Shown in pieces: positions 1-19,329 of a stretch of DNA of 20,000 nt (positions within the stretch are counted from its first letter, which is position 1; each line of letters starts with the position of its first letter). Both the position numbers and the translations under genes were made by a program. The stretch lies in sequence record DRR723986_2455. The stretch is one strand, 5' to 3'. The notes under the pieces are model-generated. The model was given only the letters and a program-made list of their open reading frames with translations. It was not told the origin of the DNA and searched no databases.

Positions 1-1034
1 ATCACTTTCTCGAGACGTTGACGCTGTCTATTGGCGGTGAAGCCGCTGAGCTGTTGGTGATTCGCCGCAACCCCCTGCGGGTGGAGAATGTTTGGTACTA
101 CGGCCTTTCTGAGGAGTTGTTGCAGTGGTACATCGGCAGCGACATGATTGCCGTGGATATCGTCATCAATACGGCAATTCGTCAGGCGCCAGGCGCTTTT
201 CAGACCGCGCTTACCTATGTCGAAGAGACTAACCCCGATGAGGGCTCTGTGCGCTGGGAAGCAGAGCAGGGCATGCTCGATGCCGCTTGGCTTGTTGTTG
301 AAAGCTCAGCGGATGAATGTGTGCTGCTGACAATTCAAAGAACCGTGGAACAGGGTGCATTTCAGCCGCATGAAATTGGCGCTCTGAACCGTCTTGCTCC
401 CTATATTCGTCAGGCTGTGGGCCTCAATCGGCAGTTAGCATCGCGTAGCGACGTGTCGTCATCCCTGGCTGCGGTCATCGATGTATTGCCCGATGCGACG
501 TTAGTGCTGGACAGCTATTCCACGGTGTTGCACTCCAATAAGGCCGCGCGAGCGTTGCTTGATCGCGAGCGCAGCCTGGCGATACGCGATGAGCGCCTGA
601 GCTTTTCAGAGACGGCGCTGCAATCCGCGTTTTTTCTCGCCTCGACACAGGTTGTGCGCGCCAGTATTGGTCGCGAGGGGCATTACACCGAGACCTTATT
701 CTTAAAACGTGCCGGTCGTCAGCCGCTGATATTTGTATTGCGGCCGATAGAGAGCAGCGAGTTATTGGCGGGCGGAGCGCTGCTTACCATTTATGAGCCC
801 GGTCACCGGCAGTTGCCAAATGCCGAGCAAATTGCCGGCTATTTTGAACTTACGGTGGCGGAGTCACAGGTGTGCGAGCACTTGGTAGCGGGCATGGATT
901 TGCAAGCTATTGCCGACCACTTGGGGCGCAAGATAAGCACTGTGCGTTACCAGTTAAAGCAGGTTTTTCAGAAGACGGCATGCACCCGGCAGGGAGAGTT
1001 GGTGAGCAGTATTTTAGCGGCGCTATTGCGATAG
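1..1034 (+). CDS. LuxR-type HTH transcriptional regulator with PAS-like sensor region (5' end probably outside the window)
   Basis: The frame is open back to the window edge. It has a PAS-like segment (LAAVIDVLPDATLVLDSYSTVLHSNKAA) and a C-terminal LuxR HTH (FELTVAESQVCEHLVAGMDLQAIADHLGRKISTVRYQLKQVFQKT..RQGELV). Confidence 0.88.
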   Translation, partial: HFLETLTLSIGGEAAELLVIRRNPLRVENVWYYGLSEELLQWYIGSDMIAVDIVINTAIRQAPGAFQTALTYVEETNPDEGSVRWEAEQGMLDAAWLVVESSADECVLLTIQRTVEQGAFQPHEIGALNRLAPYIRQAVGLNRQLASRSDVSSSLAAVIDVLPDATLVLDSYSTVLHSNKAARALLDRERSLAIRDERLSFSETALQSAFFLASTQVVRASIGREGHYTETLFLKRAGRQPLIFVLRPIESSELLAGGALLTIYEPGHRQLPNAEQIAGYFELTVAESQVCEHLVAGMDLQAIADHLGRKISTVRYQLKQVFQKTACTRQGELVSSILAALLR

Positions 1035-2736: not shown

Positions 2737-2924
2737 GGTATCTCCGATTTTTGTACCGAATGTCTAAAGTCGCTAGAGGACCATAGAGCCAGGTACAGCT
2801 CATCTCCCAAATTGGGTATGCGTTACTGGGTGGCGGCGGGAATCGGTAATATTTCTATAATTACCGGGAGCGCGCCTTACTGTTTGCCTGTTTGGGGGTG
2901 GACGTAAGTGAAATGGTGGGGCAT

Positions 2925-2946
2925 AAAAAAAGGCCTTCGCTGTGTC
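2925..2946 (-). terminator. Distal half of the tRNA-Leu intrinsic terminator, split off by the transposon insertion
   Basis: AAAAAAAGGCCTTCG here is the reverse complement of CGAAGGCCTTTT at 19952-19963. Removing the element restores the minus-strand hairpin AAAAGGCCTTCGTTG-ACA-CAGCGAAGGCC followed by a T run. Confidence 0.8.
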
Positions 2947-3090
2947 TGTAGGTAACTTCATTAATTGTCGCCTGCTTTTCATCAAAAGTTGCCACTTTCG
3001 CCGTAATTTCCGGTTCTTTGCGATGGTTATCTTCACTATTGACGACCATATTTCAGAATAAGTTGTCAGTGTTTTTATCATAAGGTGGAA
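2947..3090 (+). repeat. Transposon end distal from the tRNA, with putative TnsB-binding sites
   Basis: Terminal TGT followed by related motifs: CATTAATTGTCGC (2959-2971), CAAAAGTTGCCAC (2983-2995), AATAAGTTGTCAG (3057-3069) and a weaker CATAAGGTGGAA (3079-3090). Confidence 0.75.
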
Positions 3091-3214
3091 AATTAAAACC
3101 TTTTAAAAACAATTGGTTGGGGTTTTTGTTGCAGTTATTAGGGTTGGTTTTGCTCTAACAATCCTGTGTGCACAGCGGTATATTGAGCTAGCTCGGCGCC
3201 AAATGGAGGAGAAT

Positions 3215-3412
3215 ATGAGCACCCCGTCCCGTGAAGGAGCATCTCCTGGAGAGCTCTTTGTCGACGCGCGGCCAGTCCCGGCTAGTTCGAACACAGAATA
3301 TGACCTACGTGAGCTTATTGGCCCACAAGAGACGATTTCCAAGTGCTATGACCGCAACGCTGAGGATAAGCAATGGCTCAATGACCTGCCTGTAGGTTTG
3401 GAAGCACTGTAA
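3215..3412 (+). CDS. Small acidic protein resembling the C-terminal toxin-binding half of MazE/PemI/ChpS antitoxins, with no AbrB domain and no toxin
   Basis: A GGAGGAG RBS precedes ATG 3215 (65 aa). The motif YDLRELI...EDKQWLNDLPVGLEAL* matches the PemI/MazE tail pattern Y.L.EL....E...WL..P.G.E. Confidence 0.6.
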   Translation: MSTPSREGASPGELFVDARPVPASSNTEYDLRELIGPQETISKCYDRNAEDKQWLNDLPVGLEAL

Positions 3413-3651
3413 TTATCATGGCTATTTGCATTCTGAGGTTGGAAATGACGCATTGGCGATGCGTTTGAGTTCCGCCTCTTTTGCGCAGAAGATCGTTGAA
3501 ATAAAATTCATAGGCGTCTCAAATGACACTTAGCGGACGCCCATAACACCGAAGTCGACGGCGGTATATAAATGAGCGGGCAAGTCGGTTACCTTCGTGC
3601 ATAAGGCGCGTTTTGGCGCAATTTCTATTTAGTTGATCATTAAACCCCGTC

Positions 3652-3678
3652 TTTTAAGGCTCACGCTTTGCCTTAAAA
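3652..3678. terminator. Inverted repeat, possible terminator or protein-binding site
   Basis: TTTTAAGGC-tcacgcttt-GCCTTAAAA, 9-bp arms, between convergent genes. Confidence 0.4.
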
Positions 3679-3695
3679 TGCGCAGTTTACCTGAG

Positions 3696-3720
3696 GAAAA
3701 GAGGGCGGCACTCCGCCCCC
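3696..3720 (-). terminator. Intrinsic terminator of the 5616-3724 operon
   Basis: The minus strand reads GGGCGG-agtg-CCGCCC-TCTTTTC immediately after the stop at 3724. Confidence 0.65.
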
Positions 3721-3723
3721 TAC

Positions 3724-5025
3724 CTACCACTTGAAGCCGGGCAGAATCGATTCGGCTGCTTTGCGAAGATCGTTATTCTTGCCCGGGCCATGGGTCAGAT
3801 CATTGGCCGCGTTGCGGAAGGTCTTCACTACGTCATTGTTTTTGCCCGGGCCCTGAGTTAAGTCATTGGCCGCATTGCGGAAGGTTTTCACGACGTCGTT
3901 GTTAGGGCCAAAGTGGCGGGCAAATTCATTGCTCAGATTGTCCAGTGCCTTAACAATATCGTTGTTCGGCCCAAAGCAACCATTTTTGCCGCCCACACCG
4001 TGAGTGAAGCACTTGCTCAGTTCTCGGCTGGTAAGGCGACCACCGGTACAGGTAACAAAGGCCGTCGGCTCCCCCCCCGAACCCATCGCACACTCCATTG
4101 CAATTTGCTGCTCTGGCGTCAGGTCCAGCGACCCCATGCCATAGCAGACTGCCGTGCCGTATACTGAAATATCGCCTTGCTCGGATTCCTGCTGCATGCA
4201 ATTGACCAGGCGGGCCTGATCTTCACTGAAAGAATCCTGCGCCATGCACAAGGGATACGCCTTGTAGTTTTTTCCGTGCTGAAGATAGCAGTCACTGACC
4301 TTGGCGATGTCTCGCTGCTCCTGACTACCGCCAAGCGCGGCCAGCGTGCACAGCGCCATCTTGCCATCGTCATCCTTGGCCTCCCGGGCACATTTATAAA
4401 AGGCCCGTTCTTTTTGCCCCAGCATTTCATTAATCATACACTGTTTGAACTTGTCGTTCTGCAGCTTGCCGTTTTTCGCTCGTGAATTATTGGCACACGA
4501 CAGGGCCTCACTCTCGCGGACCAACCGCGGGGCCGTGATACTAGCGCCGGGCTGTTCAAACCGTCTGGGAATGTAGCGCGTCGTCGATGTCAAAGTTTCA
4601 GCGCCCCGGACGAAACTACCGCCTCGCGGCAAAGGCCGATACGCATGCAGCCACGGATTCGGCGGTGGGTACCCCGGGTTAAACTTGCACTGCCCAATCT
4701 GATTCGCCCCCTGATACATATTGACGGCCACCATCGCGCCCGCCCAGTCAATGAAGTAGCCGTTGTTCGGATCGATGCTCGAGAGCTGGATATACATCAT
4801 CCCTGAGGGGTCACGCCGCATGGGATTGAAGACCGGTCCAAAACCCTGTCTCTGACGAAAAAAGGTGGTTTTTTCCGATACGTAGGTCCCATTGGTCATC
4901 AAAGCTAGGCGGTCAGGCCCGCTACTATCCGCATAAGAACAGGATCCGATTTGTGGTAGCTGCGCCTGGGTAGCGGCTGATAACACTAAAAGCATTAACG
5001 ATAGCAACATCGATGGTAAGCGCAT
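3724..5025 (-). CDS. Secreted cysteine-rich protein with C-terminal 21-aa tandem repeats
   Basis: Sec signal peptide MRLPSMLLSLMLLVLSAATQA, an AGGGGAG RBS, regularly spaced Cys pairs, and NND(V/I)VK...ND..xGPG repeats. Confidence 0.8.
   Translation of the reverse strand: MRLPSMLLSLMLLVLSAATQAQLPQIGSCSYADSSGPDRLALMTNGTYVSEKTTFFRQRQGFGPVFNPMRRDPSGMMYIQLSSIDPNNGYFIDWAGAMVAVNMYQGANQIGQCKFNPGYPPPNPWLHAYRPLPRGGSFVRGAETLTSTTRYIPRRFEQPGASITAPRLVRESEALSCANNSRAKNGKLQNDKFKQCMINEMLGQKERAFYKCAREAKDDDGKMALCTLAALGGSQEQRDIAKVSDCYLQHGKNYKAYPLCMAQDSFSEDQARLVNCMQQESEQGDISVYGTAVCYGMGSLDLTPEQQIAMECAMGSGGEPTAFVTCTGGRLTSRELSKCFTHGVGGKNGCFGPNNDIVKALDNLSNEFARHFGPNNDVVKTFRNAANDLTQGPGKNNDVVKTFRNAANDLTHGPGKNNDLRKAAESILPGFKW
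3770..3972 (-). repeat. 63-nt (21-aa) intragenic tandem repeat, three full copies plus a partial
   Basis: NNDIVKALDNLSNEFARHFGP / NNDVVKTFRNAANDLTQGPGK / NNDVVKTFRNAANDLTHGPGK / NNDLRK. Copies 2 and 3 differ mostly at synonymous sites. Confidence 0.85.
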
Positions 5026-5073: not shown

Positions 5074-5616
5074 CTAGCGAACCGTCACGGTAATGGCGAT
5101 GAGTTTGGATTGGTTACCGCCGAGCGCCGCGGCTTGCGATGACATTTCACCGGCAATATCAGACAACGCGGCCTTAGACTGGGTTACCATACAGACGGAA
5201 CCGTTATGGCTGACGTCCTTGCCAACGAGAATGCAGCCCTGAGTTTGGCGTGGATAGTTGCCAACATGGAGTTGCACCAACTTTCGATCGGGCACGCCCT
5301 CGAGCTGAATTCGCCAGCCCTTCTTACCATCGCGGCGAATCCACGCAGGATAGGTACCTTGCGGGATCCGGCTGATGGCAGTTTCATTGTTCTTCCATGG
5401 CAGCTCAAGCGATCGCCCGACCTCTTTGTCGTTGACCAGTATTCGCCCTATCGTGCTGTTGTCCGCGCAAGTCATATTGCGCTCAATCACTAGGTTGAAA
5501 ACCGCATCCTGCTTTGATGCCAATAGATCACTGAGTTTGTCGTCTGCTTGCGACAGATACGGTAGCGAATACAAGGCGAATAAGAGTGAGGCAAGGAAGT
5601 GGCGTGTTCTCAGCAT
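5074..5616 (-). CDS. Secreted DUF5675-like protein (L,D-transpeptidase-like His/Cys motif, putative peptidoglycan-acting enzyme)
   Basis: The likely start is ATG 5616, giving the signal peptide MLRTRHFLASLLFALYSLPYLSQA. Motifs: STIGRI...SLELPWKNN...SRIPQGTY...VPDR..VQLHVGNYPRQTQGCILVG. Confidence 0.78.
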   Translation of the reverse strand: MLRTRHFLASLLFALYSLPYLSQADDKLSDLLASKQDAVFNLVIERNMTCADNSTIGRILVNDKEVGRSLELPWKNNETAISRIPQGTYPAWIRRDGKKGWRIQLEGVPDRKLVQLHVGNYPRQTQGCILVGKDVSHNGSVCMVTQSKAALSDIAGEMSSQAAALGGNQSKLIAITVTVR

Positions 5617-6267
5617 GCTGGCCCCTGACAAGTTAGTTTCGAAGGGAGAATTGTCTATTCCCACTATCGCGAGAACGTTTGTGGAAGGTAAGTAAATATC
5701 CCTGTTTGAGGAATTCGGGGTAGCTGACAAGATTAGTCCCTTTCCCGAAAATAGTTACTACGTTTAGGTAGTAAAAACTATATATTTCAATGGGTTGTGT
5801 TTCGGTTGGCGGTGTTAGCACGACACTGTCCCTTTATTACATTGAAATTCCCTTGCTCTTGATCATATACCGGCCAATTGAGAAATCAATAATTTAACGC
5901 CAGCATAACGGTATAAGCCTAAGACTACTGAAAAAGGCTAAAACGCCGCGGTTATTGGAAAGTTTTGATTGCTCCAAGCATCTGGTAATGTGGCGCAGCG
6001 CTCGTAACGCACAACGAATCTAAACATTCTGACTGTCCGTTTATTGCCAACAGCCGACCTTCATACAAATATGACAATAGTCCAATCCTGTCGAAAATAG
6101 GGCGTTGACTGTAATCCAGCTATTTCCGGGTTTTGGTTGTGATTGGGTATGAATAGAATTTCAACCCTAGTCTGCAATTAGGCCTTATTATTGAATTAGC
6201 CCTCTTTGATTCATTTGGTTATAGTTTTTTGTCTTGGGTCCTTTTGGTGAGGGCTATTACTCATTTG

Positions 6268-7282: not shown

Positions 7283-7512
7283 AGGATCATCTCCAAACCA
7301 ACGCTGGACTAGACGTGTAGCAGTGGGCGTTTAAACACTACACCTGCCAGCGAATTGGCAAAGGTGATGTCCTTCGTAGAGGTATTTCCGCTGTCTTTTT
7401 GGCCGCACACAACCATGGCAATCAGCTCCTGTTTTAAGCATACGGATTGCTGGGGGTTTTGCAAGCGTAGGGAAACTCCCAAGCGGGGCATCTTGCCTAC
7501 GGTATCAGTGCG
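7283..7512 (-). ncRNA. Candidate structured RNA / long 5' leader
   Basis: Several complementary segments: GTGTAG 7315-7320 with CTACAC 7338-7343; CACC-TGCCA 7341-7349 with TGGCA-aa-GGTG 7356-7366; GCAATC 7418-7423 with GATTGC 7445-7450; CGTAGG 7466-7471 with CCTACG 7496-7501; GCAAG 7461-7465 with CTTGC 7492-7496. The region runs directly into the RBS. Confidence 0.4.
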
Positions 7513-8422: not shown

Positions 8423-8848
8423 TCAGGTTCCTGGCTTCATATAATTTCTGGCCTCAAATATCACCCTGCTGATACTGCCTCCGCTAATAATATGTTCAGC
8501 AGGTGATTTTCCGTCTATTCCTTCGGACAGAAAAAATATTATGGCTGATTCTTGGTCATTCTTGTCTGGAAATGCGGAGATAATATCCGGTAAATGCGCT
8601 TGAATTGTCGAAATAAACTGAAATTTTGGTAAGCGGTATTCAGTGCCGTGAAGCTGGTAAACGAGAAGTCCGTTCTGCTTAATTTTCCTTATGATTTCCG
8701 CCGGAGATAGCGACAACTCACCGGCGGCCTCTTCCATCGATAATGCGCCGCCATTGTTCTGTACAAGAGTGTGAAATCTGTCAGTGCCTGTCATCAAAGC
8801 GGAGCTGATTAAATCGTCACAGTCGCCTTTTCTGTCCCTCATATCCAT
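8423..8848 (-). CDS. HTH protein resembling MbcA/ParS/Xre-like antitoxins of RES toxin-antitoxin systems
   Basis: GGALSMEEAAGELSLSPAEIIRKIKQNGLL (HTH), then YRLPKFQF...LPDII...FFLS..IDGKSP. This pattern is typical of HTH antitoxins found next to RES genes. Confidence 0.6.
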   Translation of the reverse strand: MDMRDRKGDCDDLISSALMTGTDRFHTLVQNNGGALSMEEAAGELSLSPAEIIRKIKQNGLLVYQLHGTEYRLPKFQFISTIQAHLPDIISAFPDKNDQESAIIFFLSEGIDGKSPAEHIISGGSISRVIFEARNYMKPGT

Positions 8849-9448: not shown

Positions 9449-9614
9449 ATAAAGAAAAACCCGAAAAACTTGCGCTTTCCGGGCTTCCCGTGAGGTAGAT
9501 ACCTCGATCTAATCAATCTCAGTATCTCTCCTCGTTCGAAACCTGTCAAGCGTCCTATTCCCTGAATCAATGATTTGGGTCGAGCCCTCTTGGCCCAAAA
9601 AAGAGGACCATGTG

Positions 9615-12212
9615 ATGAATTCTATTAGAGCGGTGATCGAACAACCAAAAATGGCCGGCAAAATAACACCAGCAGGCCGTGCTTACATTGAGCGAGTGGC
9701 TAGAAATCCGCCCTCTCGAGCTGTCGGCGGAGGTATGTACAACAATGTAGTTTACTTCCCGTCTCGTAAGATGGGGTACGCGCTACATCTAGAAAGCTCT
9801 ACCTTGGAATTAGCCTTCGCTATCTGGTGCGAGATACAACTTTCGGTACAGCGGTACTACACGCAACCGGAGCCGAGGCGGATAAGGTACCAGTCTGCGT
9901 CGGGGCGTGTAGTCGGAAGTATGGTAACGCATGACTTCCTCGTCATTGGGGATGATGGCGTACAGTTCGTTGAGTGCAAGCCAAGTAGCGTGCTTGAGAA
10001 AAAACGCAAGAAGAATCCAACTAGGTATTTTGTTGATGAAGAGGGTCAATGGCAATGTGCAGCGTCAAAGCAGGACGCATCCACGCTCGGCTTTGAGCAT
10101 CGCATCGTAACTGAAAAATCTCTTAGCCAGAAATTGGTTCGTAACGCCGATATTTTAAAATCGCATGTTTTGCATATGGACTATGCATTCGAGCCCGCAA
10201 GCCAGGCGCGAGATAATGTAGGTATACCCCCCAGCATAGAAATTATGACCCTTTTCGAATTATATGAGCAAGTGGGTCAGGATGTAGCCTTGCAAGGAAT
10301 TCTTGCTGGCCGTTGGTTTGTTGATCTCGAAAATTCGTTGCTTATTCACCCAGAGAGAGTGTGGGTATATTTCAATAAAAATAAAATGTTAATTCAAAGA
10401 AAGTTATCGGATTGCCGACGAATAATTGTAGAGAATATTTACGATCTCGAGAGCGCCAGGACGGTTTTTTGGGATGGCAATTCCTGGGACATTGTGAATT
10501 TTAATGTCACGTCTAAGGCTATCACGCTTTGCTCATCATCGTCTGTTCTTCGTTTAGAGGGTGACGAATTGGAAAAGCTAATTGCAAAGCGGGCGTTTTC
10601 AAAGTCCAGCCCTTCTTCTCAAGCCGTCATTAATGAAAAGCTAATCCATGCAAAAGACGCTGACATAGAAGAGATGTTGCGGCGTGCAGAGATGGTAAAT
10701 GGGAAAAATAGTTCTGCTTCAGTAAGAACCGTCCAACGCTACAAACGATCTTTCTTCGAGGCGGAGGAGGATTTTGGTAATGGCCTAGTTGGTTTGTTGC
10801 CGCGTCATCCTGCGAAGGGGAATCGTACGCGTCGGCTTTGCGACGATACCGAAGCATTGATGAAGAAGATTATTGAAAAAAAATATCTGAAGAAAAACGG
10901 TGGCTCTGTGCGCAATTCGTACATATTGTACCTTGCTATCGCGCGGCGGATGAATCTTCAGGAAGTCACTTACAATACTTTCCACTCGCGGGTAACGAAA
11001 ATCTGTCAGAGAAGGCGGGTATCCCTTCGTGAGGGTGTAAAGGCTGCCTACCAGATGGCGCCCGCCGGTCGTTTGGAAATTGAAGAATCGCGGCCGCCCG
11101 ACGGAGACTTCGCATTCCAGATTGCTCACATCGACTCCACGCCAATTGAGCTTTCAATGGTGTCATCGATTAACGGTAAAGCTATAGGGAGTCTATGGCT
11201 GACCGTGATGGTTGATGCGTACTCTCGACATCCGCTCGCCTTCACCCTTTCTCCCCACAAGCCGTCTTTCCGCACGATAATGGAATTAATTATGAAGTGC
11301 TCGAAGCGTTGGTCGAGATTGCCGCTTACATTGGTGGTCGATCAAGGTTCTGAGCATAAAAATACATACCTGCAACAACTTTGTGCGTCTCTTGAGATAA
11401 CTCTCTTCTACAGGGCTGCATCTGCAGCGCGAGTTGGGGCGCCGGTTGAGCGCCTGTTCGGTACTTCTCAGCAGCAGCTCATTCATCAGCTTGAGGGAAA
11501 TAGAAAAAACATAAAAATGGGACGTGGAAAATCGCCATCACACGATCCACAAAAGCAAGCGTTGTGGTCGCCTACAGAATTTTCTCGGGTATTGGAGCAT
11601 TGGGCCTTTTATGTTTACCCCGGATTGACACATTCCACAACAGCTGAATCTCCTGCAGAAAGGCTGGCCAGGTCAGATGGAAAATTTCACAGGAAGCCAG
11701 GGGTGCCAGCAACATGGAACGAGGACTTTGAATTTCTCCTGTTACCGTCACCAAAAACTGGTCCAAGGACGATCACGGTGCGTGGGGTTACGATGTATGG
11801 CATTTCCTACCAGTTTACCCGGCCTGTCAATCCAGAGCGTTTGCCCAAAGAAAAAGTATTGATGAAATATAACCCCTTCAATCTTTCTTATTGTTATGTG
11901 CAAATCAATGGATTTTGGGAGCGGCTTGTCACCAATAATCCGATTGTACGCGAGTTTATAGAGGTCGGCTTTCCGCCGACAGAAATGGAAATTATTCCCT
12001 TGTTGAGAAAGCAAAAATCAGAATACGCATCTGTTCAAGATATTCAGATTGAATTTGTTTCAGAAGTCGAGGATTTTGAGCGGGAAATTTCAAAAGGCCA
12101 AGCGGTCTTGGAACACGCCAATAAGCATCGTGACGAGGTTCCATGCCGAAGAAACCTGCACGCTCCACGTCCAATCGACACGAACAGCCTGCCGCTAGCT
12201 GACGAGCTATAG
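9615..12212 (+). CDS. tnsAB: TnsA endonuclease-TnsB DDE transposase fusion
   Basis: N-terminal TnsA-like PD-(D/E)xK domain (FPSRKMG..ES.TLE...YYTQP...THDFLV...FVECKP). C-terminal DDE domain (AHIDST, VMVDAYSR, VVDQGSE, PVERLFG) and a Mu-transposase-C-like tail (KYNPFNLS). The start is probably 9612 or 9615 after GAGGA; the ORF track starts at 9570. Confidence 0.9.
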   Translation: MNSIRAVIEQPKMAGKITPAGRAYIERVARNPPSRAVGGGMYNNVVYFPSRKMGYALHLESSTLELAFAIWCEIQLSVQRYYTQPEPRRIRYQSASGRVVGSMVTHDFLVIGDDGVQFVECKPSSVLEKKRKKNPTRYFVDEEGQWQCAASKQDASTLGFEHRIVTEKSLSQKLVRNADILKSHVLHMDYAFEPASQARDNVGIPPSIEIMTLFELYEQVGQDVALQGILAGRWFVDLENSLLIHPERVWVYFNKNKMLIQRKLSDCRRIIVENIYDLESARTVFWDGNSWDIVNFNVTSKAITLCSSSSVLRLEGDELEKLIAKRAFSKSSPSSQAVINEKLIHAKDADIEEMLRRAEMVNGKNSSASVRTVQRYKRSFFEAEEDFGNGLVGLLPRHPAKGNRTRRLCDDTEALMKKIIEKKYLKKNGGSVRNSYILYLAIARRMNLQEVTYNTFHSRVTKICQRRRVSLREGVKAAYQMAPAGRLEIEESRPPDGDFAFQIAHIDSTPIELSMVSSINGKAIGSLWLTVMVDAYSRHPLAFTLSPHKPSFRTIMELIMKCSKRWSRLPLTLVVDQGSEHKNTYLQQLCASLEITLFYRAASAARVGAPVERLFGTSQQQLIHQLEGNRKNIKMGRGKSPSHDPQKQALWSPTEFSRVLEHWAFYVYPGLTHSTTAESPAERLARSDGKFHRKPGVPATWNEDFEFLLLPSPKTGPRTITVRGVTMYGISYQFTRPVNPERLPKEKVLMKYNPFNLSYCYVQINGFWERLVTNNPIVREFIEVGFPPTEMEIIPLLRKQKSEYASVQDIQIEFVSEVEDFEREISKGQAVLEHANKHRDEVPCRRNLHAPRPIDTNSLPLADEL

Positions 12213-12230
12213 ATTCTAGAGGACATCAAT

Positions 12231-13310
12231 ATGATTTCTCAAAAAACACTTATCGATATTGATAAATACCATTTCGATCACGACCATTTGATCCGGGCTC
12301 GTTGGGAGCTGTCTTGTCAGATACAGTGTGGCTTGCAGCACCAATTTGCGCTAATTCTTGGCCCCTCTGGCGTGGGCAAAACGAGTTTGCTGAACTATTT
12401 CGCGAAGAAGCTAACTGAGTACAGGATGGCTCCGGAGTTCACGGAGAGAAAGTCACCTCCAATCCTGCTAAACGCTCCAGCCCGCGTGCGCGGCTCCTTT
12501 CAATGGAAGCCGTTCCTCACTGATCTTATATCCAAGCTTGGAGCCGATATGGGTGCCATTTACGACTTGGACAGACATGTCAGTGATCTGACGTTGTATG
12601 CGGCCAAGCAAGTGAGGGTTGGGTTTAAGAAGCCGCAGGTCGAAACTTTGCATGATTTAGCAGCCAGCTTGATAGACGCGCAAAAGCCATTGGCAATATT
12701 CATCGATGAAGGTCAGCACTTTAGTAATTCTGGGACTGACGATCAGCGACGTGAAGACGTCGACCGACTTAAGACATGCGTTAATGATTTTAACACTAAG
12801 TTGGTTCTGGCTGGGACCTACGAGGGAATGGGGTTAATTGACTATAGTGAGCAAGTCGCAAGGCGAAACTCGCTGATAGAATTTCCTCGCTATGGCAAAT
12901 CTGATGTTGAGCTTAAAGCTTATGCCCAATGGTATGTTTCAGTCTGCAAAAAGGTGGGGATAGATGTGCGCTTGCCGCCGCTCAATGACCCTGAATACGT
13001 ACAGCACTATACCCTAGGTGTGCCTGGAATATTCACAAGCTGGCTTCAAGACGCGGTAAGCAATAGTCTGATGTGCGAGAAGAGTTCTGTTACAGAAAAA
13101 GCTTTAATTAGCACAAGACCCCATCCCAGGAAGTTAAAAGTCGCGTACGATAAAATCAGCCAGTATGAGCAGTATAACAATATCAGCTTCGATCAACTCT
13201 GTGACTTTGATCTTATCCCTTCTCCCGGTGAGGCTAGCGATGGGGTGTCTCGGAAGAGGTCAAAGCCTGGTCGGCGTCTCCCAACACGAGATCCGATAGG
13301 GCGTAGTTAA
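12231..13310 (+). CDS. tnsC: TnsC/TniB-like AAA+ ATPase
   Basis: Walker A GPSGVGKT, Walker B IFIDEGQH, LVLAGTY, arginine finger QVARR, and a C-terminal KPGRRLPTRDPIG. It lies between the transposase and tniQ. Confidence 0.92.
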   Translation: MISQKTLIDIDKYHFDHDHLIRARWELSCQIQCGLQHQFALILGPSGVGKTSLLNYFAKKLTEYRMAPEFTERKSPPILLNAPARVRGSFQWKPFLTDLISKLGADMGAIYDLDRHVSDLTLYAAKQVRVGFKKPQVETLHDLAASLIDAQKPLAIFIDEGQHFSNSGTDDQRREDVDRLKTCVNDFNTKLVLAGTYEGMGLIDYSEQVARRNSLIEFPRYGKSDVELKAYAQWYVSVCKKVGIDVRLPPLNDPEYVQHYTLGVPGIFTSWLQDAVSNSLMCEKSSVTEKALISTRPHPRKLKVAYDKISQYEQYNNISFDQLCDFDLIPSPGEASDGVSRKRSKPGRRLPTRDPIGRS

Positions 13311-13313
13311 TCG

Positions 13314-14612
13314 ATGTCGCTCTATGCAAAGTATGGGTTCGTTTTTTGCGAACCCATAATTGAACCGGGTAGCGACGTTGAGCTAATGTCTAGCTACTTG
13401 TCCAGGTGTGCAAATGTCAATTTCACCAGCACTTCACATCTTATTGCATCATTGGAAAAAGCAATGGTGCATCGACGAGCGCGTGGAAAGAAATCAAAAC
13501 GTTCACAGGGTGATATGTACAATGTAAATGGAATTGGCCCGCTTGCCAACGATGCTGTAGACGCGTTAGCTGGTGTCGAAGACCTGAATATAGATTTTAG
13601 AAATTTGACTTTAATCAAGTGGAGGCCATGGGTCGATTTCCGATTGCATGGAGTACTTCGGCCTAACAGGATGTGGTGTGCTCAATGCTGGGCTGAAGAT
13701 ATTGACCGAGGGATTGACCCTTATATACGACTTCTCTGGTCACTTCATTCTGTCACTGCCTGCTACAAACACAAATGTTTTTTGGAAGATCGTTGCCCGA
13801 AGTGCGATTCCTTGCAGGACATCGTTACTTCGTTTCCGCGACAATGGTATTGCTTTAGGTGTGGAAACGACCTCCTATCAGATGGGCAGGATATGAAGGG
13901 CGCCGGCGACGAGGCTATGTGGAAATCCCGAGGTATCGCAAGTCTAATTGATGCGGCTATCTGTGATGAAAACCGCCTTAGTCTGCAAAACCTTGGGAAG
14001 AATTTGCTATTTGTTGCGGATAATGTGTTGGACGGGGATATGACTGAGCTGGGTGAGGTGTGTGGCAACGATCTTCTCGAGGAGGGATTTTACTCTAGCT
14101 ACAAAAGACTTCATTTTCAGCGAATTGTGGATGTCGCTTATCGGTTGCAGATCAGTCCCGATCAGCTATTGGGGCCAAATTTTGTAATAACTACGCCACA
14201 TGAATGGAGGCCGGCAGCGTCGCGTACCAAGTACCGAAAATCTCCAAGAAAAATCGATACCGTCTTGATAAGAGAGAATATCAACAAGTGCCTGAGCGCC
14301 CCCGAAGCTATAAGCCTGAAAAATTTTTGTAAAGACAATGACATGTATCCCGAGGTATTTCGAGGCCATTTTCCAAAGTCTGCGGAATTGATTCAACAGC
14401 GATATTCACGTAAGAAGAAATTTCAGCGGCTTTTCTCGCGTCTTCAACGGGCGGGGAAAATATACCAGGCATCATTTGACATGATTTCTCAAGGGAGCTG
14501 CCCAAGTGAGCGCAGCTTGAGAGAGAAAACCGATCTTAAAGCCAGTGATTTTCGGCGAGATGACGTAAAACGGCTTATCGCGCAGATACAGGAAAAGTTC
14601 GGGAAGGCTTGA
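13314..14612 (+). CDS. tniQ: TniQ/TnsD-like target-selector protein
   Basis: ELMSSYLSRCANVN and Zn-finger motifs WCAQCW, ACYKH..L..RCPKC and CFRCG. A long C-terminal extension carries HTH-like segments. Confidence 0.9.
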   Translation: MSLYAKYGFVFCEPIIEPGSDVELMSSYLSRCANVNFTSTSHLIASLEKAMVHRRARGKKSKRSQGDMYNVNGIGPLANDAVDALAGVEDLNIDFRNLTLIKWRPWVDFRLHGVLRPNRMWCAQCWAEDIDRGIDPYIRLLWSLHSVTACYKHKCFLEDRCPKCDSLQDIVTSFPRQWYCFRCGNDLLSDGQDMKGAGDEAMWKSRGIASLIDAAICDENRLSLQNLGKNLLFVADNVLDGDMTELGEVCGNDLLEEGFYSSYKRLHFQRIVDVAYRLQISPDQLLGPNFVITTPHEWRPAASRTKYRKSPRKIDTVLIRENINKCLSAPEAISLKNFCKDNDMYPEVFRGHFPKSAELIQQRYSRKKKFQRLFSRLQRAGKIYQASFDMISQGSCPSERSLREKTDLKASDFRRDDVKRLIAQIQEKFGKA

Positions 14613-15057: not shown

Positions 15058-15942
15058 ATGAACCGTTTAAAGAAGAGTGTTACCGTTCAGTTTTTTTCGA
15101 TTGATGCTCATGGCCAGTTCTTTATCGACTTTGTGACAAATTTTTCCTCTAATGCCGCAGGCTCAAATAGCTCGAGAATACTAACACTACGTAAAAAGAA
15201 ATATCTCGTCAAGCTGGCCGGAGAACATGTGATATCTGGAGAAAACTGTTTCGCTATTACCGCCGTTAGAGAGAGAAATACTTGGCAAACTAAAGCGTTA
15301 AGTAATGGGAAGATTACAGGTATTTCGCCGAACCAGGGCATAGTTGGCGATCCGTATTTCTTTCTTATTGTTCCTGGGAAGCGTTTGTTACTAGGGTTTA
15401 CCTCTGGCCCTGGTGGGAGTCTGAAAAGTGTAGGCAATACTGTGTTGGATCAGTTCGGTGGAGATCGCCTTTTAAAAGTTAAATTAGACTTGATTCCTAA
15501 GGAGAAGGAGTTCTCAACTTTGAAGGAGATTCCTGCATACAGCAGCCTTCATTTCAAGATAAATTCATCGTCTTTTTCTGAAGTTGCGGATGACGCTCCT
15601 CAGCTTATCAAAGATTTGAGTGCGGCTCCTTATATAGAGAATAATATGCAATTATCTTTGGACTTGGATGTTAATAATTCCTCTCCCAATTATATGTCCA
15701 GAGAAAATGTATTGGAGATAGTTAATTATTTGTCAGAGCATGAGGGATGCACTGTGCTGAAGGTTAAAGGCGTGGGCAATAATGGCGATTTGATAAGCTT
15801 GGATTTTGGGAACGCTTTTTTGAACTACAAGACTGAAATCAGTACTCGTGCTTCTTATGTTGAGGAAGATATTTCAATAAAGGTGTTGGAGGCGGCATTT
15901 TTAGAATATTTCGAATCTAATTTTTCTCAGAAAAAAGCTTAA
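15058..15942 (+). CDS. Hypothetical protein, possible defence-associated cargo
   Basis: 294-aa AT-rich ORF with no motif I can recognise. Its 3' end overlaps the 3' end of hamB by 26 bp. Confidence 0.7.
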   Translation: MNRLKKSVTVQFFSIDAHGQFFIDFVTNFSSNAAGSNSSRILTLRKKKYLVKLAGEHVISGENCFAITAVRERNTWQTKALSNGKITGISPNQGIVGDPYFFLIVPGKRLLLGFTSGPGGSLKSVGNTVLDQFGGDRLLKVKLDLIPKEKEFSTLKEIPAYSSLHFKINSSSFSEVADDAPQLIKDLSAAPYIENNMQLSLDLDVNNSSPNYMSRENVLEIVNYLSEHEGCTVLKVKGVGNNGDLISLDFGNAFLNYKTEISTRASYVEEDISIKVLEAAFLEYFESNFSQKKA

Positions 15943-18430
15943 TGATCTCTTTTTTTGTTATTGCATGAATGTCGTTTAGGCTGCCATTGTCATAGAGGCT
16001 TAGTAGGTCTCTGGGGGTAGAAATTCTCTTTTCAGGAGCTGTTTTTGCGTCAATTTCTTTGGCGGCCTCTCTGGTTAAGCCTAAATTAATTAGGTTTATC
16101 ATTCTTTCGTCAGATGCACCAACTTCTATGAAGGCGTGAATTTTGATATTTTGTAACTCTATGCCGCCACCAATTAATATATTGTTAAGTAGGGAATAGT
16201 AGCAACGCAATGCATTGGAGAGTCTAAATCTTATGTCATTGTTAATGACTTTGATAATTTTTCTAACTGATGTATTTACACTATCAGGCTTGCGCCCCTC
16301 TTCCTTTGCTCGTTTTTCATCATAGTCTATTTGCTCCGCTATGATTTCCTTAAGGCTATTCCCGTATACCCATTTTTGCGTAATAAGGCATATGTATTCC
16401 AGGCTGTATCCTTCGCTAGGTATATAAATTCCGAATTCGTATAGCTTGTCGCAGACTCTGAGCAGATTTTCGTACAATTCTTGGGATTTTGGATGAGGCA
16501 TTACCCATTTTTCGAACTGTTTTTGCCGGCCAAGAAAGTTAAATAGTTTGTTCTGCTGAATGTATCCAACAGTTGGGTTGGCTTCTAGTGTAAATGTTGC
16601 CACCTTGAGGTTGTCATGCGCTAATTTAATATTTTCGGAAAGGTGCGATTTTTCGTCTTGGCTCAGTGTTAGCTCCTCAGCTTTCATAGTATGTTCAAGA
16701 GTGTTGCTTGAAAACTCTCTTATTAACTTATTTGCGATAGTATAGTAGCGATATTGATCTTTGTCGTCGTGCAGGTATTCTCCACGCAAGGCTACTATGA
16801 TTTCGTATAGGTTTTCGTTTAGAGATTTGAAATAAGTTGGTATTTTATCTTCTGTGTCGGTTTTATCAAAATAGTCTTTGAAAGTCCAAGTGTCGGGCTC
16901 AATTAGAAATATGTTGCCTGAAAAGTGTTTTAACATTCTTCCTGCTCTACCTGTAATGTTTCTGAGGGTAACATCATCAAGTCTTTCGGAAGGGTTTCGT
17001 GATACTGGGGTGGCGGGGTTTAGCAAGAATAAATTTTTTGCAGGAAGGTTTACGCCCTCTGCTAGGGTGCTTGTGCAGGTTATATATTTAATCTGTCCAT
17101 CTTTAGCTAGATTTTCGACCATGATTCGGATGGATGAGGGGAGTGGGCCATAATGAAATGCTATTCCTTTCCTAAGGTTGTTTGCTAGGGAATAATTTTT
17201 GTGTATAAATTCTTCTACGTAGTTTGCTGCTTCTTCTAATGCAGGGTGATCGGAGAATTCATTTATTCTTTCTGCTAATTTGTTTGCGGTGTTTTCACAG
17301 TAATCTGGCCTGTTTCGGAATATTATGTTGCTGTGCCTTGAGCCGAATTTTATTGCAATGTCTTCGAGGCTTTTTCCTTTAAACCCTTTTTTTATTCTAA
17401 GTTCATTGCTGGAGTTTTTTCGAGAGATTAGTAGCTGTTGCCCTTTCGGTTCTACAGATATGACTATTTTTGCAACTGGCGAATTGCTTGTGATTTCTTT
17501 TTTGAAAGAAACATCTTTAAAAATGCTAGAGAAAGAGTTTTGATAGTTGGGGGACGGCATGCTTATGATTATCTGAGGGAAGCTGTCCTCTAGCATTTTT
17601 TCTATCGTAAGGTGAAGGAGTACGCCTCTGCTTTTGTCGGATATGTTGTGAGCTTCATCTATGAATAGATAGTCAAATTTTATGTCGCCGCGTTGCAATA
17701 TCTCGTGAAGTCTTTCTTGGGTCATTACGAAAAAGGTCTTTCCTCCAAACTCACCCTCTTTGACAATGGTGCATATTTCTAATTCTTTTTCCTGTTCTTT
17801 TTTCTTTGCCAATTCATAGATGTTTCCAGCAACTTCAGAAATAAGAGCTCTGGTCGGCACTATGATTGCTGCAAAGGCGCCATCGCTGGCTATGACTTTG
17901 TCAAGAAGGTAGTTCAATATAATATAGGTTTTTCCTGCTGATGTTGGTGCGGAGGTAATAACGTCTTGGTCAGATTGGAGGTCGCTCCAAAGTGCGAGTT
18001 GGTAATCTGTTAATGGGAAGTCAAGTTCTTCCACATGGTTGATGTGCTCCCGGAAGTCCATTTGGGCTTCGGTATAGAAGTTGTAAAAAAAATTCGTCTC
18101 GGGAAATTTTTCTTCTAAAAGGGAGATGTTTGGGAAATTTCCTAAATACGAAAAGATATTTTTCGCTATTGGAATAATCTCTGAGTGTTCGCCAGGGTAT
18201 AGATCTAGAATCATGGAAAGAATAATTGAGCCTTCTTCTTGTAGATTTTCGTCGTCTGATTTCAATAAAATTTGGGACGATAAAAGAAGCTTTCTAATCT
18301 CTTGCTTTTCTAGATTATGACTTTCTGCTGTTAATTCGCGAATATATGAGGAGAATAATTTTTTGCTTGTTTCTTTGTACGATTCGCTTTTTAAAATATG
18401 CTTTGCTAGTTTTGTAGTGAATCCACTCAC
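15917..18430 (-). CDS. hamB: Hachiman HamB, SF2 (Ski2-like) DEAH helicase
   Basis: Motifs APTSAGKT, IVPTRALISE, TQER, IDEAH, GIAFHYGPLP, CTSTLAEGVNLPA and NITGRAGR. Its GTG start overlaps the hamA stop (GTGA). Confidence 0.9.
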   Translation of the reverse strand: MSGFTTKLAKHILKSESYKETSKKLFSSYIRELTAESHNLEKQEIRKLLLSSQILLKSDDENLQEEGSIILSMILDLYPGEHSEIIPIAKNIFSYLGNFPNISLLEEKFPETNFFYNFYTEAQMDFREHINHVEELDFPLTDYQLALWSDLQSDQDVITSAPTSAGKTYIILNYLLDKVIASDGAFAAIIVPTRALISEVAGNIYELAKKKEQEKELEICTIVKEGEFGGKTFFVMTQERLHEILQRGDIKFDYLFIDEAHNISDKSRGVLLHLTIEKMLEDSFPQIIISMPSPNYQNSFSSIFKDVSFKKEITSNSPVAKIVISVEPKGQQLLISRKNSSNELRIKKGFKGKSLEDIAIKFGSRHSNIIFRNRPDYCENTANKLAERINEFSDHPALEEAANYVEEFIHKNYSLANNLRKGIAFHYGPLPSSIRIMVENLAKDGQIKYITCTSTLAEGVNLPAKNLFLLNPATPVSRNPSERLDDVTLRNITGRAGRMLKHFSGNIFLIEPDTWTFKDYFDKTDTEDKIPTYFKSLNENLYEIIVALRGEYLHDDKDQYRYYTIANKLIREFSSNTLEHTMKAEELTLSQDEKSHLSENIKLAHDNLKVATFTLEANPTVGYIQQNKLFNFLGRQKQFEKWVMPHPKSQELYENLLRVCDKLYEFGIYIPSEGYSLEYICLITQKWVYGNSLKEIIAEQIDYDEKRAKEEGRKPDSVNTSVRKIIKVINNDIRFRLSNALRCYYSLLNNILIGGGIELQNIKIHAFIEVGASDERMINLINLGLTREAAKEIDAKTAPEKRISTPRDLLSLYDNGSLNDIHAITKKEIIKLFSEKN

Positions 18431-19329
18431 GCCTTTATCCCCATGGATTTAATAAATTGGTCAACTAAGTCATCAATGCATGAGAATGGAAGCAATAAAA
18501 GTGCAGTTTCATCGATATTGCTGTGTGTCTTTTCGAGTTCGTTGTAGAAGGTCTCGATATGTCCTTGGGCGAGTTTAGTGTATTCGTCGATGAAGTCGGC
18601 CTCTGAAGAGGATTTTGATATTATTTCCGGGCTGGCGAATCCTATGAAGCATGGGGAGTGAATAGTGTCGGCTACTTCGTAGTCTGAAAATGGGTTTAAA
18701 ATTTCAAGGAGTTGCGTCTCAATGTCTTCGTTAATGCCTGGAAAATCCATATGAGAGTCTAATAGGTCGAATTCTTCTTCATATTTTATCTTCGCGCTTG
18801 AAATGGATGCGGCGGCTTTCTTTGCGGCTGGGTTGAACTTTTTGTGCAGTTTCGATTCCCCTAGATACAGTCTGAATTTGTTATTATAGAACTGGCCATG
18901 AACGGCATCAGCTCCGAAGACAGGCATTTTGCGGTTAGTTTTTAATGATATTTTGCTTAGGATTTTTGGGGCGTTGAAGTATATTTCAAGAAGGGTGAAT
19001 AGAATTAGTTCGCCAAGCTCACCTTTTGCAGTGTGTTTGCTAAGCTTTCTTAGTACTTTGTTGAAAATCTCTTCAGGAATGTTGGCGTCATTGTTTAAGC
19101 CTAATTTTTTTTCTATTTCAGAGCATGATAGTACAAAGTTGGCGAGTATGCCGTTTTTGAGGGCCTGGAAGAGTTCTACGTAACAACTTTTTCCATCTGC
19201 TATTGGAAGGTAAACTAGTAGTGTATCGACGTTTCTCCCATCTTCTAGCTCAAAGGATGTTTTTACTTCCTTGAGAATATTGCGAATTTCTTCCGAATTT
19301 TCCAGCTGGGTTTTTAGCTTAAAGTCCAT
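18427..19329 (-). CDS. hamA: Hachiman HamA nuclease (DUF1837)
   Basis: GELGELILF, APKILSKISLKT, GADAVH and LYLGESKLH form the DUF1837 PD-(D/E)xK pattern. It is translationally coupled to the helicase gene. Confidence 0.9.
   Translation of the reverse strand: MDFKLKTQLENSEEIRNILKEVKTSFELEDGRNVDTLLVYLPIADGKSCYVELFQALKNGILANFVLSCSEIEKKLGLNNDANIPEEIFNKVLRKLSKHTAKGELGELILFTLLEIYFNAPKILSKISLKTNRKMPVFGADAVHGQFYNNKFRLYLGESKLHKKFNPAAKKAAASISSAKIKYEEEFDLLDSHMDFPGINEDIETQLLEILNPFSDYEVADTIHSPCFIGFASPEIISKSSSEADFIDEYTKLAQGHIETFYNELEKTHSNIDETALLLLPFSCIDDLVDQFIKSMGIKA

Follow-up and report, generated by a model that had tools for sequence, protein, structure and literature searches.

The question raised by the 20,000-nucleotide (nt) stretch of sequence record DRR723986_2455, analyzed here in its entirety (hereafter, the window), is whether the DNA in front of one of its minus-strand genes specifies an RNA with a structure of its own. 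That gene, at 7282-6305, codes for a 325-amino-acid (aa) protein that had no Pfam match in the scan of the window's open reading frames (ORFs). A sequence-only reading, made without database searches, had described the interval 7512-7283 as a hairpin-dense leader that either regulates the gene in cis or is bound by the N-terminal domain of its product. The core of that idea, a conserved structured RNA that is tied to the protein family and has no match in Rfam, stands; the borders and the named helices do not. The conserved element is a 133-nt core on the minus strand, at 7431-7299 (99.2 bits and an E value of 6.8e-22 with the covariance model R1, see below), and the 5' 80 nt of the interval proposed initially are promoter or nonconserved DNA. 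This RNA is a conserved, covarying structure that is strictly linked to the gene family.

The loci fetched for comparison comprise 33 from species genomes, 41 from metagenomes, and 3 from viral contigs. Most of them were found via two N-terminal peptide motifs, which biases the sample to members with a conserved N terminus; plasmid loci derived from tblastn searches correct this bias only in part. With the window leader as the nhmmer query, a match just upstream of the gene was found in 32 of the 33 genome loci at E values below 0.01 and in the 33rd one at an E value of 0.024. In the alignments, conservation runs from the −35/−10 promoter to ∼20 nt ahead of the start codon, and the 5' third of the interval 7512-7283 is unconserved. 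The covariance model R1, built from 34 homologous loci, had one match in 77 of the 78 sources and, with four added loci, in 81 of 82, always directly 5' of the gene and on its strand, which provides the conservation among homologs that the sequence-only reading had named as a check. The sole miss (L072) is a contig that starts inside the gene, at residue 24. The sources span Gamma- and Alphaproteobacteria, Melainabacteria/Cyanobacteria, and Escherichia coli IncF plasmids.

Because these loci had been found through the protein, searches from the RNA side were added. Each of five whole genomes contained a single match, at the gene, and 151 sampled Gammaproteobacteria (including one genome, G001, that had already been searched) yielded two strong matches, one of them new, both located before the gene. 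A scan of 2.9 million viral contigs with a 20-base motif returned exactly the 3 contigs of the protein scan. No gene-less copy of the RNA was seen in any of these three collections. A weak model match in L084 (29.2 bits) lies inside an opposite-strand ORF of 460 aa with no family gene nearby and was discarded as false. The start codon is located 12 to 21 nt, mostly 17 to 19 nt, past the end of the model (67/69 distinct sequences with the start placed), and a Shine-Dalgarno (SD) motif GGAG can be read from the window sequence at 7294-7291 (minus strand). Because the element ends so close to the start codon, with the SD motif in between, the fold would sit at the ribosome landing site.

The supported fold comprises four helices (P1, P2, P4, and P5) and a kissing interaction between the P2 and P5 loops, all on the minus strand. 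In P1, GCUG at 7426-7423 pairs with CAGC at 7393-7390; 100% of the alignment cells are paired, and three of the four pairs show compensatory changes (CG:41/UA:30 and CG:37/UA:28). P2 is formed by UGG (7415-7413) and CCA (7402-7400), and its closing pair is found as UA:44, AU:21, GC:4, and CG:2. P4 combines GCUGGC (7351-7346) with GUCCAGC (7309-7303), leaving one bulged base; 99.1% of its cells are paired, with UA:57, UG:6, CG:5, and GC:4 at the third pair. P5 combines GUAGUG (7341-7336) with UGCUAC (7322-7317), with 92.8% of the cells paired and compensatory changes in five of the six pairs. The kissing interaction, first indicated by a scan for covarying column pairs, joins GUGUGC in the P2 loop (7410-7405) to GCCCAC in the P5 loop (7328-7323). 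In the model-fitted alignment, 91.4% of its cells are paired and five of its six pairs have compensatory changes; in a structure-blind MAFFT alignment, 88.7% are paired, versus 26 to 51% when the partner strand is slid (24 to 51% for the two alignments together). In this window, five of the six positions pair, with one U-C mismatch. The remaining hairpin, P3 (CGAAGG/CCUUUG, 7376-7359), comes from the single-sequence fold and varies in length and sequence by locus, with 56 of the 69 distinct P3 regions folding at −3 kcal/mol or better.

The covariation, another check suggested by the sequence-only reading, is strong. RNAalifold run on a plain MAFFT alignment gave P1, P2, P4, and P5. For 34 cores and 19 pairs in the MAFFT alignment, 96.1% of the cells are paired, compared to 89.1% in shuffled and 24 to 53% in slid controls, and 9 pairs have compensatory changes; none of 500 shuffles was as high. 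For 72 distinct sequences and 25 pairs, the corresponding values are 95.9%, 85.1%, and 21 to 50%, with compensatory changes in 17 of the 25 pairs, again as high in none of 500 shuffles, which ignore relatedness. As the larger alignment is model fitted and its shuffles are blind to relatedness, a fairer assessment is given by the MAFFT counts and the slid controls. The alphaproteobacterial plasmid loci (Rhizobium, Agrobacterium, and Labrenzia), which were found by tblastn, without the peptide motifs, after the model had been built, serve as an independent check: R1 scores 53 to 55 bits just upstream of their genes. In these versions, P1, P2, P4, and the kissing loop are retained but are formed by other base pairs, namely, GCCG/CGGC in P1, a closing G-C pair in P2, GCCGGCG/CGCCGG in P4, and GCAAGC with GCUUGC or GCUUGU in the kissing loop.

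Several unpaired segments are invariant or nearly so. They include GGAG at the 5' end (7429-7426), GAUUGCC and AAAAGAC in the internal loop between P1 and P2, UUAAAC in the P5 loop, and AAG ahead of the 3' strand of P4. The alphaproteobacterial versions alter some of these bases, with UUAAAC changed to AUAAAG or AUGAAG and AAAAGA to AAAAGG. Overall, the RNA is better conserved than the protein, with mean column identities of 66% and 36%, respectively.

The window taken by itself offers none of this. The density of hairpins noted in the sequence-only reading turned out to be no better than chance: for 258 nt, the folding z score is −1.02, with 29 of 200 shuffles equally stable, and for the 133-nt core alone it is +0.43, with 139 of 200 shuffles equally stable. 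Thermodynamic stability was therefore rejected as evidence for structure, and, because the folding energy is at chance level, the window sequence alone gives no evidence of it; the structural evidence comes entirely from the comparison with relatives. The two helices named in that reading do exist as complementary words, CGTAGG (7501-7496) with CCTACG (7471-7466) and GCAAG (7496-7492) with CTTGC (7465-7461). They were rejected, as they lie upstream of the conserved −10 box and over the −35 box and are not conserved in alignment A2; the whole region 7501-7461 is unconserved in the 33 genome loci. The sequence blocks that the sequence-only reading had ascribed to similar leaders fared in a similarly mixed way: those downstream of GGAGCTGAT are inside the conserved core, and the upstream ones, GATACCG..CAAGATGC..CTACG, are specific to this window, except for the TTGC of the −35 box.

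The RNA appears to be new as a family, although a structured leader tied to a gene family is of a familiar kind. The sequence-only reading could name no Rfam family for it, and a cmscan search of the whole window on both strands against the 4,227 models of Rfam 15 at E values of up to 1 likewise returned zero matches. Comparison of the leader DNA with plasmids by blastn gave no match. No description of this RNA was found in the literature, where motif lists confined to supplements or kept outside Rfam could include it, and neither searches for surveys of structured RNAs nor the passages searched in PMC11109978 showed anything that matches it.

The conserved region starts with a promoter that, judging by its sequence, is of the sigma-70 type. 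The −10 box TATGCT (7442-7437, minus strand) belongs to a TAnnnT motif that ends 4 to 9 nt before the near-invariant GGAG in 68 of the 70 distinct upstream regions, exactly 7 nt before it in 46 of them; alignment A3 shows no variation in the T and A of the box. The extended −10 dinucleotide TG, present in 56 of these 68 regions, is CG in this window. The −35 box TTGCAA (7464-7459, minus strand) corresponds to the consensus TTGC of alignment A2, and TTG is found 16 to 18 nt before the −10 box in 38 of the 70 distinct upstream regions. In the window, the promoter agrees with the consensus in 8 of the 12 positions, which is under the threshold of the promoter scan, and was not listed for this reason. 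Because the −10 box sits at a fixed spacing from GGAG, the start of transcription is inferred to be at GGAG or 1 nt before it, near window position 7430 and ∼150 nt upstream of the ATG. A start close to the ATG had been named beforehand as an observation that would speak against a leader; the promoter would place it far upstream.

Several observations indicate that the element acts as RNA of the sense strand. In P1, P2, P4, and P5, G-U pairs outnumber A-C pairs by 44 to 4, and therefore it is the sense strand that folds; the kissing loop, with 13 G-U and 10 A-C, is not decisive in this respect. An element that works at the DNA level (an operator or a Frpo-type single-stranded-DNA promoter) or a small coding frame is very hard to reconcile with the data. 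The former could be suspected from the neighboring ArdA, SSB, and RadC genes, which bring to mind the single-stranded promoters (PMC11541004) present in the leading regions of conjugative elements, and the latter from the 60-aa ORF at 7491-7309 and the SD-like GGAG followed by ATG. However, in addition to the wobble asymmetry, the −35 and −10 boxes are outside and 5' of all helices, and the IncF copy is found near the replicon and a resistance region, not adjoining oriT. As for the coding potential, none of the three frames is free of stops in 57 of the 69 distinct cores, and the open frame of the other 12 is not a shared one. The variable P3 regions fall into length classes modulo 3 of 39, 18, and 12 sequences. 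The ATG of the window is AAG, UAG, UCG, CCG, or AGG elsewhere and includes half of the covarying P2 closing pair. A small ORF or leader peptide was rejected, as there is no conserved frame and the indels are not multiples of three.

Traces of the module are found in RNA libraries. Metagenome contig L038, with the RNA at 2844-2981 and the gene at 3001-3930, is identical to the copy on the E. coli plasmid pEC_B24, and its sequence is present in 20 public runs, 13 of them recorded as RNA, from 10 studies. RNA-library contigs from three studies begin ∼100 nt before the RNA and continue across it and the gene (X2 and X4, 2745-4200; X7, 2752-3594). This is only a hint that the leader and the gene are read together, as DNA carry-over is possible and contigs cannot prove transcription, transcript ends, or levels; uncovered parts and depth steps in such contigs are no evidence of transcript ends, either. 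In X6, the depth of the 60- to 76-nt unitigs over 2896-3056 (the 3' half of the leader plus the initial ∼55 nt of the gene) is ∼10 times that of the contig spanning the remainder of the gene, and adapter sequence begins at 3095. They may represent a discrete abundant fragment or an artifact of the polymerase chain reaction. In addition, RNA-run contigs X2, X4, and X6, from three studies, share the same divergent sequence upstream of L038 position 2745, ∼100 nt before the RNA; in IncF plasmids, the module apparently has a boundary at this position that arose by recombination or insertion.

The proteins encoded downstream of the RNA form a widespread family. A word-indexed search retrieved 112 relatives, and an exhaustive profile search yielded 372 clusters (50% identity), of which 77 have E values of 1e-30 or less. 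The N-terminal ∼225 residues are conserved, residues 1 to 50 being the most conserved, and the C termini vary. No family for this protein was found in Pfam, NCBIfam, or PADLOC, the protein atlas has only unnamed clusters, and the only PHROGs match is weak (E value of ∼0.002, unknown function) and limited to the C-terminal part of two of the four members scanned. One UniRef entry labels the protein "Atc1 protein"; in the literature, that name leads solely to unrelated genes, with no explanation found, and no paper containing WP_000102288 was found. The protein in the window has a pI (isoelectric point) of 4.50 and a net charge of −27; for 90 members, the median values are 4.32 and −32, respectively, with a charge of approximately +2 in residues 1 to 50 and −18.5 in residues 111 to 225.

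In the AlphaFold model, residues 1 to 220 are confidently predicted (mean local confidence score, pLDDT, of ∼95) and form a helical domain (residues 1 to 105) and an α+β domain (residues 110 to 223). Comparison of residues 110 to 223 with NTF2, SnoaL, and cystatin chains gave Z scores of 4.7 to 6.3, all below the caution level of 8; the best NTF2/cystatin-like example, 4ccv_A, has a Z score of 6.3 and a root mean square deviation (rmsd) of 5.3 over 103 aligned residues. Folded alone, the N-terminal domain (residues 1 to 110) has a pLDDT of 88.6, and its top fold match, with a Z score of 5.2, is below the noise level for helical models. HRDC domains of RecQ, WRN, and Rrp6 (Z scores of 3.9 to 4.9, rmsd of 3.0 to 3.9 over 68 to 75 residues) appear among many unrelated helical proteins, and Foldseek found no matches at E values of up to 0.001.

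The C-terminal parts are diverse. Among 21 members scanned, of which 19 are unusually long or off register and 2 are typical (377 to 380 aa), four carry C-terminal Phage_ABA_S, YozE_SAM_like, or GMT-wHTH domains. In the window protein, the C-terminal ∼90 residues (residues 230 to 322; positions 6595-6305) match small stand-alone ORFs on 3- to 4.6-kilobase plasmids of E. coli, Klebsiella, and Citrobacter, with 38% identity and E values from 6e-7 to 3e-6; an ORF from a Vibrio plasmid also matches. The tail therefore represents a separate mobile module.

These features can be combined into a tentative scheme. The sigma-70 promoter, the ∼135-nt structured RNA, the SD motif, the gene, and the closing hairpin would together make a self-contained expression unit. 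The hairpin, which the sequence-only reading had described correctly as 13 base pairs closing the gene, is G+C rich, lies at 6297-6268 (minus strand), 8 nt past the stop codon, and is the likely transcript end; its minimum free energy is −25.5 kcal/mol (z score of −3.91; 0 of 200 shuffles equally stable). The hairpin lacks a U tract, and the terminator scan did not report this site. The RNA domain would begin at the 5' end of the transcript or 1 nt before it, and its last helix would be followed by the SD motif after 6 to 10 nt. Two arms, P1-P2 and P4-P5, would be locked together by the 5- to 6-base-pair kissing interaction, with the variable P3 insert between them. The RNA is proposed to act in cis on its own mRNA, presenting a compact fold a short, constant distance before the ribosome-binding site, where a factor that binds the fold would gate the initiation of translation. 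Gating by a shape-binding factor would fit a shape that is rigid and specific, stands at a fixed distance from the SD motif, and comes with no switch that could be found. The likeliest factor would be the gene's own product, acting in feedback via its conserved, mildly basic N-terminal helical domain. This scheme of a cis leader that gates translation under feedback by its own product, in which the start, the cis action, the gating, and the bound factor are all inferred, is favored here with a chance somewhat short of even. The feedback part is in line with the strict one-to-one linkage, with the constant spacing from the RNA to the start codon, and with the charge of about +2 in the most conserved part of the protein, residues 1 to 50.

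Several points weigh against this scheme. Duplex energies for simple pairings of the SD region with the conserved unpaired segments are the same for cognate and noncognate pairs, so no expression platform was detected, and the terminator scan of the window lists no terminator after the RNA element. The very acidic nature of the protein (median pI of 4.32) does not favor RNA binding, and the fold matches of its N-terminal domain are weak (HRDC-like, Z scores of 4.9 to 5.2, below noise, with no Foldseek match). The junctions are near-invariant between Gammaproteobacteria and Melainabacteria, whose proteins are ∼40% identical, which would fit a universal ligand better than a coevolving partner. 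Finally, the shuffle control used for the covariation takes no account of relatedness.

Two candidate switching mechanisms were considered and dropped. Sequestration of the SD motif by the P5 loop, the P2 loop, or the junctions received no support, as the energies of cognate and noncognate combinations were equal. A helix between the linker (A/G)CUAC and the 5' strand of P5 was rejected because its longest complementarity averages 4.81, compared with 4.20 for shuffled linkers and 4.64 for noncognate pairs; despite some apparent compensatory changes, it does not hold for L019, L073, or the sequences of the Melainabacteria type.

The near invariance of GAUUGCC, AAAAGAC, UUAAAC, and AAG across phyla, the compact pseudoknotted fold, which is conserved and covarying like that of an aptamer, the position at the mRNA 5' end close to the SD motif, and the higher conservation of the RNA than of the protein would all suit a riboswitch, i.e., an aptamer for a small molecule or signaling nucleotide that switches translation of the downstream gene. 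However, riboswitches of most classes regulate more than one gene family within a pathway, whereas a single gene family is associated here; no alternative pairing of the SD motif was detected, the competing linker helix is no better than shuffles, the alphaproteobacterial versions change the "invariant" loop bases, and no ligand can be named, so that a riboswitch, while worth keeping in mind, is unlikely. Another view is that the leader, perhaps processed from the mRNA, forms a particle with the encoded protein or acts in trans (a decoy being one example) when mobile elements and hosts are in conflict. It would be in keeping with the strict one-to-one coupling of RNA and gene in all lineages and with the company of conflict and accessory genes (ArdA, SSB, RadC, AbiH, AbiEii, BREX, zeta toxin, and HipA, with Hachiman in the window), and the deep X6 unitigs with adapter read-through at one fixed end are a weak hint in the same direction. 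However, neither a terminator nor a conserved processing site separates the RNA from the gene, the levels and ends of an RNA cannot be deduced from contig depth, and the protein is acidic, with no known RNA-binding or catalytic domain found in library and fold searches; such a partnership seems rather unlikely.

The same structure could also be a passive element, a stabilizer of the mRNA 5' end or a constitutive setter of the translation rate with no binding partner, given that it starts at the predicted 5' end and that neither a switch nor a platform was detected. Such a role would require no more than a simple 5' hairpin, whereas the two-arm fold, the covarying kissing loop, and the invariant unpaired bases in three bacterial groups argue that a specific three-dimensional shape has been selected, making a purely passive role improbable. 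Self-cleaving ribozyme classes are small pseudoknotted RNAs with invariant junction bases that occur beside mobile-element genes, and the resemblance of the leader to these typical features, together with the step in unitig depth near L038 position 2896, in the linker after P1, in one run, could point to a self-cleaving ribozyme or another processing element at the head of the mRNA. This is highly improbable: the linker in question is the least conserved part of the RNA, no Rfam ribozyme matches, and the depth step comes from the contigs of a single run.

The genomic company of the module varies. Apart from the family itself, no conserved neighbor gene was found across the loci, and the next largest neighbor cluster, from 15 loci, is an antisense ORF within the family gene. 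The neighbors include genes for ArdA, SSB, RadC, DUF4942, NinX, AbiH, AbiEii, and BREX components, as well as zeta toxin, HipA, UmuC, integrases, and transposases. In 10 related Melainabacteria-type loci (L017, 6813-7388, and nine others), an SSB-family gene is directly downstream, with RadC, GP88, and DUF2786/DUF7168 genes nearby, an arrangement reminiscent of the regions by which conjugative elements establish themselves. A reverse transcriptase (RVT_1) gene is near the family gene in L017 alone, on the opposite strand. Some part of the protein is matched in 84 plasmid records; in an evenly spaced sample of 30 of them, 20 match at least 200 N-terminal residues and 10 match only residues 230 to 322. 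No protein match was found in the phage collection. In complete E. coli genomes, the module is present on plasmids in 36 of 5,426, annotated only as a hypothetical protein; the copy on the IncF plasmid pEC_B24 has the CTX-M-15 region on one side and yacAB/IS100/repA on the other.

In the window itself, the module is followed by a DUF5675 gene (5074-5730, minus strand; Pfam E value of 8.6e-26; phrog_1501, unknown function), and the large ORFs 3724-5025 and 1087-2445 had no family above the cutoff in any library scanned. On its other side are a tniA (rve, 880 aa), tniB (AAA/TniB), and tniQ transposition set (9570-14612, plus strand), identified by library scans of the window ORFs, and a complete Hachiman pair, HamB and HamA (15917-19329, minus strand; PADLOC scores of 1,343 and 450 bits, respectively). 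Judging by this gene content, the region looks like a Tn5053/Tn7-like transposon with a defense system on board. Between the module and tniA, a 141-aa ORF (8423-8848, minus strand) has a weak match to an excisionase DNA-binding domain (TIGR01764, E value of 0.002, below the cutoff). The ORF 3-1034 (plus strand), open at the window edge, has a weak C-terminal match to a LuxR/GerE-type helix-turn-helix domain (E value of 0.003) and a weak CARF-like match in PADLOC (E value of 1e-5) over the same residues. No tRNA or transfer-messenger RNA was detected in the window, and the Pfam scan found no RVT domain in its 18 ORFs, so the arrangement that defines a retron, a reverse transcriptase beside the RNA, is absent there.

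Whatever its mechanism, the RNA adds to the known repertoire a well-supported structured class that is missing from Rfam 15 and has a covarying loop-loop tertiary contact. It also offers a first way into an unnamed protein family that comprises at least 372 clusters (50% identity), is found among defense and antidefense genes, and travels on plasmids, integrative elements, and transposon-rich islands. The IncF member, found in 36 of 5,426 complete E. coli genomes, makes the RNA, its start, its partner, and its effect tractable by routine genetics in a laboratory host. Should the partner be a small molecule or a host defense signal, a new sensor would be at hand; should it be the protein itself, a new RNA-binding domain. 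A bolder and distinctly doubtful proposal is that mobile elements use the RNA and the acidic protein together as a conflict module with two parts. In one version, the RNA would sense a host defense signal, such as an immune nucleotide messenger or a defense protein, and free the translation of a DNA-mimic-like counterdefense protein; in the other, the RNA and the protein would form an RNA-protein particle of a new type that needs neither a reverse transcriptase nor a nuclease. If true, either version would mean an RNA-dependent antidefense or defense system on widespread plasmids, E. coli IncF plasmids included.

Among the known systems, ArdA and Ocr are acidic DNA-mimic antirestriction proteins. 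The family described here differs from them in showing no similarity in sequence or fold, its best structural matches being generic NTF2/cystatin-like ones with Z scores of 5 to 6.3, but it is similarly highly acidic, is found on plasmids and integrative elements, and sometimes adjoins ArdA. In type III toxin-antitoxin systems (ToxIN-like), tandem RNA repeats are encoded upstream of the toxin gene. The arrangement of a promoter, a noncoding RNA, and a protein gene as a self-contained unit of mobile elements is shared with them, whereas here there is a single copy of the RNA (one match per locus in 81 sources), no intervening terminator, and no PADLOC or Pfam match. The Frpo/ssi single-stranded-DNA promoters, which occur in plasmid leading regions, also are conserved structured noncoding stretches before accessory genes of conjugative elements, with partly similar neighbors (ArdA and SSB) (PMC11541004); the module differs in that it has an ordinary double-stranded promoter outside the helices, its sense strand folds, and its IncF copy is not beside oriT. 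Orphan structured 5' leaders and riboswitch candidates, listed in Rfam with no assigned ligand, resemble it as covarying pseudoknotted RNAs of mRNA 5' ends that come from comparative analysis; the RNA described here has no Rfam 15 model, is tied to one unnamed protein family of mobile elements, and has no detected expression platform. The cis leader proposed here can be compared with autoregulatory leaders that are bound by their own product, such as the pseudoknot in the leader of phage T4 gene 32 and the leaders of ribosomal protein genes. The protein in this case is strongly acidic and belongs to no recognized nucleic acid-binding family; what the systems have in common is a pseudoknotted leader directly ahead of the ribosome-binding site of one gene.

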